Shown in pieces: positions 51,214-56,739 of a stretch of 64,000 bases of DNA. This DNA comes from a virus (Duplodnaviria; Heunggongvirae; Uroviricota; Caudoviricetes). The position numbers and the translations under genes were made by a program. The stretch lies in the IMG/VR virus record IMGVR_UViG_3300049215_000772, positions 1-64,000 of that record; one strand, given 5' to 3'. Below the pieces are notes generated by a model, which saw only the letters and a program-made list of their open reading frames with translations, searched no databases and was not told the DNA's origin. Within the stretch, counting starts at the first letter, position 1; each line of letters begins with the position of its first letter.

Positions 51214-52524
51214 ATGGTTACTAGGGAACTGTTTGAGTCCACTTGTCAGAAGAAGCTCGAAGATATGGGGGTCGCTGATGACCCCCGCTACAAGAAGCGA
51301 CTCGCCTGGGAACTTGGCGAGATCAATGCCAAGGGCAAGCACGATTACTTCTGGTCGATGCACGAGAAGAAGGTCCGCTATCCCCTCAATCAGAACAATT
51401 TGCTCATCTGCAAGTTGCTGGGAATTTGCAAAGACTACAACATCGAGAACGACCCAAACTGCGAGTACGGCAGCTACCCCGACATCGACATCGACTACCT
51501 CGACATCGTTCGGGACTACCTGAAAACTGATTGGGCACCCCGTATCTTCGGGGAAGAATATGTCTGCAACATCGGCAACTACACCACTTTCAAGATCAAA
51601 TCGGCCCTCATCGACATGGCTCGTGTCCACAGCGAGAGTCGTGAAGAAATCCAGGCCATCACCAAAAACCTTGACGACAAGGACGACGAGGGCAAGGCCA
51701 TCACTTGGGATGCAGCGATGAAGCTGTACCCGGACCTGAAGAAATACTGTGAGGAACACAAGGACGTTGCTGAAGCCGCCAAACGACTTCTCAACCGCAA
51801 CCGTGGGATGGGCGTCCACGCCGGGGGACTCATCATCTCCAGCATCCCCCTTTCCGACCTGGTGCCGCTCGTCAAGCGTAAGGACAATCCACAGGCCAGT
51901 GCGTGGGTGGAAGGTTTGCACGGCCAGGACTTGGGGCCGGTCGGCCTGGTGAAGTTCGACTTGCTGGTAATCAACAACCTGCTCCAGATTGCTAAGTGCT
52001 GCAAACTTGTCAAGGAGCGGCATGGGCTGGCTGGTATTTGCGCCCTGCCCGGCAAAAGCGATTGGACCGATGTGAATGCCTGGCGCAACGATCCCAAAGC
52101 CCTGGCAATGGCTGACAAGGGCGACCTGAAGGGTATCTTCCAGTTCGACAAAGATACTGTTCGCACAATGGCCCGCAGGGGTGGCGTGACCAGGTTTGAA
52201 GACCTGATTGCCTACACCAGCCTTAACCGGCCAGGGCCGATGCAGTGTGTGAAGGAAAGCACGAATGTTTCGACATCCGTGGGGCAGAGTCCAATCGAGA
52301 AACTTGAGCCTGGGCATGATGAAATTGCTTATCTCGGCGGCGATGGTATGTTGAAACACACCAAGCGATACTTCGTCACCAAAACGAAGAAAAAGAGTCT
52401 GTTGAAAATCACGACTCGTTCCGGCAAGGTGCTGTACGTCTCTCCCGACCACCGCATTCTCACCGAAAGCGGGTATATCCGAGCCGATAATCTCGAAAAA
52501 AGCCAGAAAGTTGCTTCCATTTAA
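51214..52524 (+). CDS. dnaE: DnaE middle fragment (palm with catalytic 'PDIDIDY') fused to a split-intein N-fragment
   Basis: '[10 protein letters not shown]', 'GVHAGGLII', '[10 protein letters not shown]', 'GIFQFDK', 'LNRPGPMQ' match E. coli DnaE palm motifs; then 'CVKEST...[24 protein letters not shown]' shows Hint block A (Cys1, Thr6) and block B (TxxH as 'SPDH'). Confidence 0.8.
   Translation: [436 protein letters not shown]
52246..52521 (+). mobile_element. split intein N-fragment (IntN, about 92 aa) at the DnaE 'RPGPMQ|C' junction
   Basis: Begins with Cys directly after the conserved 'RPGPMQ'; the Hint N-terminal blocks align with cyanobacterial DnaE IntN 'CLSYETEILT...ATKDHKFMT'. Confidence 0.65.
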
Positions 52525-52565
52525 CATGCCAAGCATATATACTTCCATATAGACCTGGAGGTTAT

Positions 52566-54879: not shown

Positions 54880-55003
54880 ATGACGATTGCCTGGGATGAA
54901 ATTGTCTCTATTGAGCAAGTGGAGGATGGACAGTGCTATGACATCACTCTTCTCGAAGATGATGTTTACTTGGATGAGCCGAATTTCATTGCTGATGGGA
55001 TCG
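54880..55003 (+). mobile_element. split intein C-fragment (IntC, about 41 aa)
   Basis: Blocks F/G 'CYDITL...[12 protein letters not shown]' (compare Npu IntC 'VYDIGVERDHNFALKNGFIASN|C'). Confidence 0.65.
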
Positions 55004-56739
55004 TTGTCCATAATTGTGGTATGGACAAGCGGTATATCGAGCGCAAGCGTGGCCGGGAAAGTTTCGAGTTGCATCCGATCCTGAAACCTATCTTGCAGAA
55101 GACCTACGGCGTTATTGTGTACCAGGAGCAGGTAATGGCCGTCCTGAACGCTGTTGGGGAGATTTCCTGGCAGAACTGTTGGGATGTCTGCAAGGCCATG
55201 TCGAAGAAGAAGATCACTGGTTTCGAGAAATACAAGGAAATGTTCATCACGAATGGACAGAAGAACCTTGGTGTTTCCGACAAGGAGATCAATGACCTGT
55301 GGAACCAGTTGGAAGCCTTCTCTGAGTACGGGTTCAATTCCAGCCACGCCACGGCGTACACCTACATTTCTGGCTGGCTGTTGTGGCTGAAGGCTCATTA
55401 CCCGCATGAGTTCTACACTGCCATTTTGTCATGCGAGACGCTGGCGGAAAAAATGAAGGAGTACAAGATCGAGGCGTTCGTTCATGGCGTCAACATGCAC
55501 CAGTTGGACATCAACAAGTCCAAACTGACTTTCGATCTTGTGGGCGACACGATTTATTTCGGTCTTTCCAACGTCAAGGGCATTGGGGAGGAGCCGGCCA
55601 AGCGTATTTTGGCTGGGCAGCCTTACAAGGACATCGAGGACTTCCTGCGGCGGTTTGGGACGGATGCCAACGTGTTGAAGCCGTTGATTGGCTTGCGCTG
55701 TTTCCGTGAATCTGACCCGGTGACTTTGTGGAAGTTTGCTGAGTTCTACAAAGACAAGCACAAGAAGTACGAGGACAAGAAGAAGCGTTTTACTGCTAGT
55801 GTGGCCCGTTACCAGGAGCAGTTTGAGGAACTGACGGGCATGAAGGTGAAGTTGTCGGAGTTGGAGATGCCCAACTCCGGGAAGAATCCATTCGACAATG
55901 ACGAGTGGCGGTCCAAATTCGACATCAACGAAGAAATCGAAGTGGACAAGGAAATCGAGTGTGAGCCGCACGAGGAGGGTGCGGAGGCTCGCTGGGAGAT
56001 GGTGCCGGTGTTGATTGAGGGTACGGAGGACGAGTACATTGACAAGGAAGTTCAGCGGTACTACAAGATGGGGAAGGTGAAGAAGAAGTACAACAAATGG
56101 AAGAACATCGTGACGCTGTGGAATCGTTACCAGCGGGCGATTCAGAAGCAAAGGGAAGCGCCGGGTTTGCAATTGCCCAAGTTGGCGGAATTCAACGCCG
56201 CCGAGTGGGAAATTGACGATGATTTGGTGAAGGAATTGCGGCATCCTGTGAAGTGCGAAACTAAGTATTATGGTTTCGCCTGGGTTCACGATCTGGAGAA
56301 AAGCCCCGATTACAAGGGGAATATGACTTTCGAGCAATTCCGCAGCAACCCTGATCTCAAAACATCGCCCGTGGAGATCAAGGTGTTGAAAGTTAGCAAG
56401 CGGGACGGCAAGAAGGTCCAGTTCTATCAGATTGAGTGTGAGGATGCGACCAATGAGTTTGCCAAGTTCAACGTGTGGATGGACGACTGGCAGCGGTGGG
56501 GACCGGAATTGAAGAAGGGTAACTTACTTAGGGTTAGGTTGATGCCGCCTTCTGGTGGGTATCCAACCTACACCTTCGAGAGTCCTCCCAGGCATCAGCG
56601 TTGGAAACTTCCGAAGAACAAGGAGGATGATTTCCGGCTTGTTGTTATGCGACCCGGAAAAGAACAAGTGGATGACGTACTCACCAATGAGGAGGCTCTG
56701 GAACAGTTCTCTGAATGTGTTTACGGAGACGAAGAATGA
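54880..56739 (+). CDS. dnaE: split-intein C-fragment fused to the DnaE C-terminal fragment (fingers onward)
   Basis: IntC '[45 protein letters not shown]' ends in HN followed by the +1 Cys; the extein '[17 protein letters not shown]...[13 protein letters not shown]...[26 protein letters not shown]' matches DnaE 'SGMVDNFIDRKHGREEISY...YQEQVMQIA...[26 protein letters not shown]'. Confidence 0.8.
   Translation: [619 protein letters not shown]

Follow-up and report, generated by a model that had tools for sequence, protein, structure and literature searches.

How a polymerase can be produced from a gene that is broken inside a conserved motif, with other genes occupying the break, is the question raised by a locus at positions 51214-56739 of a viral DNA stretch of 64,000 nucleotides (positions 1 to 64,000 of the IMG/VR record IMGVR_UViG_3300049215_000772, Caudoviricetes; the whole of this stretch is hereafter referred to as the window). 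The gene is dnaE, which encodes the DNA polymerase III alpha subunit, and it is split here by an intein, with genes lying between the two intein halves; this observation, made in an initial annotation of the sequence, was confirmed. The dnaE gene of this huge phage is likely to be a fractured gene, in which two genes for nucleases and one for a DNA adenine methyltransferase occupy the gap of the split intein, and we infer that the two DnaE halves are joined by protein trans-splicing.

The region is filled by five open reading frames (ORFs), all on the + strand, and they are arranged as a compact array: a 41-nucleotide (nt) spacer follows the first ORF, the second and third overlap by 4 nt, and gaps of 1 and 7 nt precede the fourth and fifth. 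The outer two encode parts of DnaE (hereafter fragments 2 and 3, fragment 1 being a separate upstream gene considered below) and the inner three are hereafter referred to as ORFs B, C and D, so that the arrangement of two dnaE fragments with three genes between them is as initially described. The insert of 2769 nt lies in dnaE precisely where ...NRPGPMQ would otherwise join CGMDKRY..., a point within the conserved RPGP(M/L)(Q/D)-(S/C)GM motif (insertion point at the hyphen) of the fingers domain. Fragment 2 (51214-52524, 436 amino acids (aa)) matches Pfam DNA_pol3_alpha (E=4.5e-27) and positions 4-103 of the 166 in DNA_pol3_finger (7.6e-14), and the C-extein of fragment 3 matches positions 82-165 of 166 in the same DNA_pol3_finger profile (1.6e-18) as well as HHH_6 (1.2e-14). 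Fragment 3 starts with an ATG at 54880, 7 nt past the ORF D stop and with a GAGG Shine-Dalgarno (SD) sequence upstream, a start with which an independent gene call concurs.

The segments bordering the gap carry the HINT blocks A, B, F and G together with the catalytic residues. The N-terminal intein half (IntN) opens directly after RPGPMQ with Cys1, encoded at 52246, and its block B reads SPDH; the C-terminal half (IntC) ends in VVHN and is followed by the Cys+1 at 55015. All the splicing residues are present, including Cys1, the block B His, the Asp-containing YDI of block F, the penultimate His, the terminal Asn and Cys+1. The Cys-initiated Hint N-fragment noticed at first was thus recovered with its SPDH block, as was the VVHN ending before Cys of IntC, the latter being 45 aa in length and not about 41. 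The Pfam models Intein_splicing and Hint_2 weakly match residues 345-434 of fragment 2, at the correct profile positions, and IntC corresponds to positions 118-155 of the 155 in Intein_splicing, i.e. its last 38. When joined in silico, the two halves match solved mini-inteins across the split point in a search of the PDB sequences, the best match being the DnaB mini-intein 4o1r (E=5.2e-7), followed by the CDC21, Ssp DnaB, RecA and gp41-1 inteins. The motifs WDEIVSI and NF(I/V)A..I(V/I)VHN align with those of the DnaB and CDC21 mini-inteins, and the fused halves are covered in full (100%) by an alignment, at 34% identity, with a contiguous mini-intein of Microcystis phage Mvi-JY20. These Pfam and PDB matches agree with a predicted Hint domain in the junction segments. 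The halves are also of opposite charge: IntN has a net charge of +6 with a local +10 patch of Lys and Arg, and IntC has a net charge of -12 with no Lys or Arg at all. As judged from sequence, the identity of the halves flanking the cargo as a class-1 split mini-intein is confirmed.

Relatives with an empty site define the boundaries of the insert. The closest sequenced phage, LR756511 (595 kb; hereafter L001), has a contiguous DnaE of 1179 aa with the junction LYRPGPMD-SGMHEEY, the sequence running uninterrupted as ..LYRPGPMDSGMHEEY.. across it. A much nearer relative, IMG/VR UViG_3300049216_000192 (hereafter L002), shares synteny with the window across 10 genes or more, at 59-86% aa identity; none of ORFs B, C and D is present in it, and a single 918-aa gene with 79% aa identity replaces fragments 2 and 3, reading ..NRPGPLGMNMDKRY.. 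at the junction, with the empty site (around 11006) carrying ...AACCGTCCCGGCCCGCTCGGTATGAACATGGAC... in place of the insert. The C-extein aligns with residues 693-1176 of the L001 DnaE and with the second part of the fused L002 gene. DnaE thus resumes exactly at CGMDKRY, as proposed initially, both relatives being contiguous across precisely that point; the 918 aa of L002 equal the 344 + 574 extein residues of the window, and a spliced product would have this length and not the approximately 950 aa first estimated. The +1 residue is Cys in the window phage, and Ser or Met in the intein-less relatives. Among 1221 phage records carrying DnaE, 942 cover at least 80% of the junction query, and every record (60/60) in a spread sample of 60 taken from the 1221 has a match that runs across the junction unbroken.

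Over some 180 nt at the junction and just beyond it (55015-55200 against approximately 11030-11210 of L002), nucleotide identity to L002 is only 0.57-0.65, compared with 0.72-0.88 on both flanks. A conserved motif is encoded in this stretch, and the G+C content of the stretch at third codon positions (GC3) is host-like (0.70-0.73). It could be a co-conversion tract or could reflect divergence of the target site, and the pattern is ambiguous between the two. A gene of 209 aa elsewhere in the window (48342-48971, + strand) is also without a counterpart in the otherwise syntenic L002.

The composition of the insert is foreign to that of the gene which it interrupts. GC3 is 0.70-0.79 in the flanking exteins (0.735 in the N-extein) and 0.44-0.57 in the insert. 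At the IntN boundary it falls from 0.79 to 0.47, the latter value being that of the initial 90 nt of IntN; ORFs B-D have 0.44-0.50 and IntC 0.47, and over the initial 90 nt of the C-extein the value is 0.70 again, so that the shift coincides exactly with the intein boundaries. The value for ORF B (0.44) is the lowest among the 75 ORFs of the window. The coordinates of the features are collected in Table 1.

Table 1. Features of the dnaE locus and of the separate dnaE fragment 1 in the window
Feature	Position	Strand	Description or basis
DnaE fragment 1, 475 aa	41475..42902	+	PHP domain and start of the polymerase core, no intein; tblastn, phrog_405
DnaE N-extein of fragment 2, 344 aa	51214..52245	+	Degenerate PHP-palm linker duplicate, palm with PDIDIDY, N half of fingers
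IntN, 92 aa	52246..52524	+	Cys1, block B ...VSPDH..., TAA stop; half of predicted class-1 split mini-intein
Hairpin over ORF B SD and AUG	52527..52575	+	RNA fold
ORF B, 333 aa, candidate free-standing nuclease	52566..53567	+	Zinc fingers and TnsA-like PD-(D/E)xK domain
ORF C, 177 aa, NaeI-family PD-(D/E)xK nuclease	53564..54097	+	Endonuclease domain only
ORF D, 257 aa, Dam-fold D12-class alpha-type N6-methyladenine (m6A) methyltransferase	54099..54872	+	Motifs, fold, PADLOC
IntC, 45 aa	54880..55014	+	Blocks F and G, ends ...GIVVHN
DnaE C-extein, 574 aa	55015..56739	+	Cys+1, GMDKRY..YQEQVM, C half of fingers, HhH, C-terminal region

ORF B follows IntN after the 41-nt spacer (52525-52565), with a GGAGG SD sequence at 52557-52561 and its AUG at 52566. 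A predicted RNA hairpin pairs CUUCC with this GGAGG and covers the AUG; its stability of -19.5 kcal/mol (z=-2.95) was equalled in 0 of 200 shuffled sequences. Towards its N terminus the protein contains a C2H2-like finger together with a zinc finger of the form CxxC...FCSxxC, and the C-terminal domain is of the TnsA-like PD-(D/E)xK type (..YHPDF..LMELK..) with the canonical D...E-x-K motif. Matches to Pfam Tn7_TnsA-like_N (4.1e-06) and DUF7487 (3.4e-06), both barely above the cut-offs, are accompanied by matches to NCBIfam TnsA_like (1.3e-4) and to the 'endonuclease' families phrog_218 and phrog_15427. The nuclease domain is shared with the product of 20352-21050 on the - strand (BLASTP E=2e-6, 25% identity over 138 aa), a free-standing paralogue with two clearer C2H2-type fingers and a TnsA-like PD-(D/E)xK domain (Pfam 1.2e-13), which agrees with the earlier placement of the two proteins in one family of zinc-finger PD-(D/E)xK nucleases. 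The paralogue does not lie obviously within a broken gene and is probably another free-standing gene of the homing type. ORF B itself is most likely a homing endonuclease. Its consideration as a Vsr-like (EDxHD) enzyme was rejected, as the Pfam, NCBIfam and PHROG matches are TnsA-like and no nuclease was matched at E<=10 among the PDB sequences, which presumably include the structure of I-Bth0305I.

ORF C, whose start overlaps the ORF B stop (ATGA), had been taken for a hypothetical protein; it belongs instead to the NaeI family (Pfam PF09126, E=6.5e-21, 75.3 bits, the cut-off being 25; positions 40-154 of the 288 in the profile). Compared with NaeI of PDB 1ev7 (E=1.3e-7), its residues E58, D74, D89 and K91 align with E70, D86, D95 and K97 of NaeI, which we take to be the catalytic site, and the four are conserved in a family alignment of 15 sequences. 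The two-domain type IIE architecture is missing, the 177 aa comprising the endonuclease domain alone. An exhaustive search of 1.84 billion representatives detected 301 relatives, in which short forms (150-200 aa) and full-length forms are mixed; a word-indexed homologue search with ORF C returned the query protein alone, and IMG/VR scans with the proteins P0122 and P0123 gave no matches. ORF C was found also on a contig of 673 kb, the longest carrying it. Short NaeI-like genes of 147-194 aa with only the endonuclease domain recur free-standing in large phage genomes (L007/L020, L021, L043, L044 and L041), where they adjoin UvsX/RecA, gp32, FEN or HNH genes. The short NaeI-like nucleases may constitute an unrecognised phage family of homing-type nucleases derived from a restriction enzyme fold.

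ORF D starts at a GTG (54099), 1 nt past ORF C and with a GGAGG SD sequence within the ORF C end, and not at the TTG (54087) first assigned to it; the Dam-like nature initially ascribed to its product was borne out. Its family comprises 4947 detected homologues, and ORF D retains every invariant residue. Motif I (EPFAGS) lies N-terminal to motif IV (DPPY), both being invariant across 61 sequences. An alignment-based AlphaFold2 (AF2) model has a predicted local distance difference test score (pLDDT) of 88, with E. coli Dam, DpnM and T4 Dam as the top Foldseek matches. The protein falls below the cut-offs of Pfam MethyltransfD12 (16 bits against 22) and TIGR00571 (13.4 against 114.85), and is classed by its motifs and fold as a divergent D12-class subfamily. 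A C-terminal extension of approximately 45 aa (54735-54869), missing from homologues at 60-67% identity, is modelled as an extended segment followed by two helices (pLDDT 62-70). In the model this strand-helix-helix pattern is reminiscent of the ribbon-helix-helix DNA-binding motif; Pfam gave no match for the extension as a ribbon-helix-helix regulator. Some of the more distant homologues carry a zinc-ribbon-like tail (CxxC...CSxxCR) in its place. Homologues with 40-67% identity are orphan methylases on phage contigs in all six contexts inspected, several of them in clusters of methylases, and ORF D probably protects phage DNA.

The window shows a marked avoidance of palindromes. Of the 64 hexamer palindromes, 47 are absent from it and 17 are tolerated, the commonest being GCCGGC with 38 copies. 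CGCG does not occur, against about 160 occurrences expected, and all four xGATCx and all four xTCGAx hexamers are missing, with GATC itself present 297 times and TCGA 351 times. The absent non-palindromic hexamers without CGCG number 16, and apart from CCCCCC/GGGGGG they are all degenerate or type IIS sites, namely CYCGRG (AvaI), RGATCY, YACGTR, GRGCYC, GWGCWC and GGTCTC. L002 (17 kb) behaves likewise, with one site of the avoided set and zero CGCG, and L001 shows the avoidance in part. A description of such palindrome avoidance in huge phages was not found in the literature searched.

The initial annotation had suggested that ORFs C and D could be a hitch-hiking restriction-modification (R-M)-like unit. 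According to this explanation, they would form a cognate type II R-M module in the intein gap, the methylase protecting an adenine-containing site of the nuclease; the pair would attack unmodified DNA of the host or of competing phages and make the cassette addictive, and with the intein and ORF B it would amount to a three-layer selfish element. The two genes are adjacent, co-oriented and separated by 1 nt, with the SD sequence of the second inside the end of the first; they score in PADLOC as REase_II (1.1e-9) and MTase_II (6.5e-36, full profile), ORF C retains all four NaeI catalytic residues and ORF D all the invariant methyltransferase residues, and GC3 is alike in the three cargo genes. 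In addition, P0123, the closest homologue of ORF C (49% identity, on a phage contig of 217 kb), lies 1.7 kb from a D12 methylase. That methylase, however, has no detectable relationship to ORF D apart from the motifs (E=0.17), a NaeI-like neighbour occurs in none of the six contexts of ORF D homologues, and the short phage genes in L007/L020, L021, L043 and L044 have no adjacent methyltransferase. Among about 20 bacterial NaeI-like genes, all full length, every one pairs with a 5-methylcytosine (m5C) methylase, usually accompanied by Vsr. The NaeI specificity was also tried and rejected for ORF C: GCCGGC is devoid of adenine and outnumbers every other hexamer palindrome of the window, so that ORF C as an isoschizomer of NaeI under the protection of ORF D is impossible. 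The part of the early suggestion that places a restriction-enzyme-family gene beside a methyltransferase gene therefore stood, and the pairing was not borne out in the homologue contexts. A cognate R-M pair is possible but doubtful, and ORFs C and D are more probably independent cargo, i.e. a second free-standing nuclease and an orphan protective methylase. The further proposal that the intein gap serves as a landing pad, with the R-M pair, the homing gene and the intein forming one composite selfish element, is considered unlikely. If it were true, deletion of the cassette would cost the phage its polymerase as well as the methylation protection, the nuclease would penalise cassette-free competitors, and the element would persist inside an essential replication gene.

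The split by the intein is not the only break in this dnaE. Fragment 2 does not contain the start of DnaE; the PHP domain is encoded by a separate gene (fragment 1), to which residues 4-433 of the L001 DnaE map with 53% identity (tblastn) and which matches the DNA polymerase family phrog_405 (E=2.9e-98, profile positions 41-439 of 1190). Fragment 1 lies 8.3 kb upstream of fragment 2, with genes for an aminoacyl-tRNA synthetase, a transfer-messenger RNA (tmRNA), an AAA ATPase and others in between. The region around the PHP-palm linker, about 100 residues long, occurs twice: it is intact (GPGRGSAVG...LFSRF) where fragment 1 ends and degenerate where fragment 2 starts (51214-51480), while the tail of fragment 1 holds VLDFRNID, a decayed remnant of PDxDxD. 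This break is conserved in L002 and looks like a gene fission by partial duplication and complementary decay. DnaE is thus encoded in three pieces, which would be assembled by two different routes, one of them the putative trans-splicing.

The gene content of the window fits a huge phage. The tmRNA gene (47560-47921, + strand) was predicted by ARAGORN with the tag peptide GETQFAMAA. Cell-like genes were observed at 43156-45051, 30668-38334, 12983-14212 and 6953-8320, and include a class I aminoacyl-tRNA synthetase (similar by motifs to leucyl-tRNA synthetase), a PrkA kinase/DUF444/SpoVR cluster, a head-domain protein of the poly(A) polymerase/CCA-adding type and RecA.

The following course of events is proposed for the locus. 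The 2769-nt insert in the fingers domain would be a mobile element made of two mini-intein halves separated by an operon of three genes, and the array would be transcribed as a unit. Fragment 2 would be made as the N-extein with the basic IntN, and fragment 3 as the very acidic IntC with the C-extein; IntN and IntC would associate electrostatically, fold into a HINT domain and trans-splice, yielding a polymerase core of 918 aa with Cys in place of the ancestral Ser. This core would have to bind the separately encoded PHP fragment non-covalently, the PHP break, which has no intein, being older. The hairpin over the SD sequence and the AUG would damp the translation of ORF B, whose product would cut the intein-less dnaE of co-infecting relatives, so that repair would copy the whole cassette. 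ORFs C and D would be secondary cargo, settled where extra DNA within dnaE is harmless; ORF D would methylate the phage DNA, and ORF C would cut another homing site or unmodified foreign DNA.

This course could be wrong at the splicing step, if the intein had lost its activity and the DnaE pieces functioned without a covalent bond, kept in contact by the intein halves or by the fold of the polymerase. The lineage already tolerates an intein-less break in DnaE, between 41475-42902 and the part from 51214 onward, and that break is conserved in L002; block B has Ser in place of the usual Thr; and one report (PMC3045599) describes a fragmented ribonucleotide reductase assembled via interaction domains derived from a mobile element. 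The Pfam intein scores, in addition, are sub-threshold. Against this stand the complete set of splicing residues and the +1 Cys where intein-less relatives have Ser or Met, expected only if the splicing chemistry is in use, and the position of the break inside a conserved fingers motif, where an appendage of 137 residues would be hard to tolerate. A non-splicing intein is accordingly regarded as very improbable. The division of labour among the nucleases could also differ from that proposed, with ORF C mobilising the cassette, with both nucleases being independent nested homing genes, or with ORF C acting as a nuclease that degrades host DNA and spares the phage. Short NaeI-like genes resemble free-standing homing-type genes in being inserted at varying places between conserved genes of replication and recombination, a nuclease aimed at any of the 47 absent palindromes would spare the phage, and ORF B has very few detectable relatives. 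However, it is ORF B that occupies the canonical slot directly after IntN, with the spacer and the regulatory hairpin found in described fractured genes; its zinc-finger modules suit a long target, a paralogue is present elsewhere in the window, and nothing links ORF C to the dnaE site. These variants are rather improbable.

Several points weigh against the fractured-gene reading preferred here. Splicing, cleavage, methylation and homing at the dnaE locus are deduced from gene and protein sequences. The Pfam intein scores lie under the gathering scores (20.7 and 16.2 bits against 35.8; 16.9 against 28.4) because each half covers only a part of the model, and the AF2 model of the fused intein, made from a single sequence as no alignment was available, has a pLDDT of 38. 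Homologues of the fused intein were not found in the word-indexed homologue search, nor relatives of ORF B in an IMG/VR scan and in tblastn against 50,697 phage records; neither the intein nor ORF B had a close relative in these searches. A single occupied allele is known; the two contigs that carry it have identical protein. The tight coupling of ORF C to ORF D and their PADLOC scores fit an R-M pair equally well as independent cargo. The insert, moreover, contains none of the avoided palindromes against 33.9 +/- 6.4 expected from its own composition; it obeys the avoidance of the host genome and was therefore not imported very recently from some unrelated genome. Its foreign GC3 together with this avoidance would fit an element circulating among phages that are subject to one and the same restriction pressure. 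A search for direct or inverted repeats at the borders of the cargo genes gave only short chance matches, and a scan for promoters and terminators gave sites no more numerous than in shuffled sequence.

It has been proposed that fractured genes stand midway between contiguous inteins and split inteins that are fully dispersed, and few complete examples are available; the present locus is complete, with both exteins, both intein halves and relatives with clean empty sites. It suggests that an intein gap can gather further cargo, a methyltransferase included. On the practical side, protein ligation could draw on its candidate split-intein pair (92 + 45 aa), which is strongly charge-complementary, and the locus also provides one methylase and two candidate site-specific nucleases. 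The occurrence of DnaE as three polypeptides brought together by two putative routes and the avoidance of hexamer palindromes make the role of the nucleases and the methylase directly testable.

Among solved and characterised enzymes, ORF C resembles the endonuclease domain of the type IIE enzyme NaeI (PDB 1ev7/1iaw), with E70/D86/D95/K97 conserved, but lacks the C-terminal second DNA-binding domain (177 aa against 317); bacterial NaeI-like R-M enzymes have 260-300 aa and lie beside an m5C methylase and Vsr, whereas ORF C lies beside an m6A methylase in an intein gap. ORF D shares with E. coli Dam, DpnM and T4 Dam, its best fold matches, the order of an FxGxG-like motif followed by DPPY, and differs from the solved Dam enzymes in its low identity (11-16%, with a template modelling (TM) score of about 0.5), a shorter region between the motifs and the C-terminal extension. 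ORF B is comparable to I-Bth0305I and other Vsr-like (EDxHD) enzymes and to I-Ssp6803I as a candidate homing endonuclease with a restriction-enzyme fold, and the Vsr-like family does occur in fractured genes; it differs from I-Bth0305I and the Vsr-like enzymes in being TnsA-like with D...E-x-K and in having no Vsr/EDxHD motifs.

The split DnaE intein of cyanobacteria (Ssp/Npu) is likewise of class 1, split by nature and located in the Pol III alpha subunit, with complementary charges and trans-splicing, the last being presumed for the present locus. The cyanobacterial intein is inserted before the CFNKSH motif, and the equivalent motif is uninterrupted in the C-extein here. The Npu and Ssp DnaE inteins were not among the PDB matches of the joined halves, and the similarity to them is remote. 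The cyanobacterial halves, in contrast to those described here, are at separate loci with no gene between (PMC2677866).

The closest parallel is provided by the fractured genes, mainly of phages, described by Dassa, London, Stoddard, Schueler-Furman & Pietrokovski 2009, NAR 37:2560 (PMC2677866), in which the spacer is 27-51 nt, IntN 88-105 aa and IntC 33-54 aa, with endonuclease hairpins in the 5' untranslated region in all loci. The initial annotation had recognised this arrangement, and the layout on one strand of a phage genome, the spacer of 41 nt, the halves of 92 and 45 aa and the hairpin all fit it; the opposite charges have the same polarity as those described for the gp41-1 and gp41-8 halves (PMC2677866). 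Three fractured dnaE loci with different integration points are already listed in the same source. The described loci, however, contain a single GIY-YIG or Vsr-like gene, whereas three genes are present here, encoding TnsA-like zinc-finger and NaeI-like PD-(D/E)xK nucleases and an m6A methylase. A methyltransferase is mentioned neither by Dassa et al. (PMC2677866, 0 occurrences) nor in a 2025 survey of inteins, in which the intein-associated nucleases are LAGLIDADG, HNH, GIY-YIG, Vsr-like and endonuclease VII-like, and the two nuclease families of this locus were without an earlier report alongside inteins in the literature searched. The arrangement itself is thus that of Dassa et al. 2009, and what is new here is the presence of three cargo genes and of nuclease families outside the known intein-associated set.

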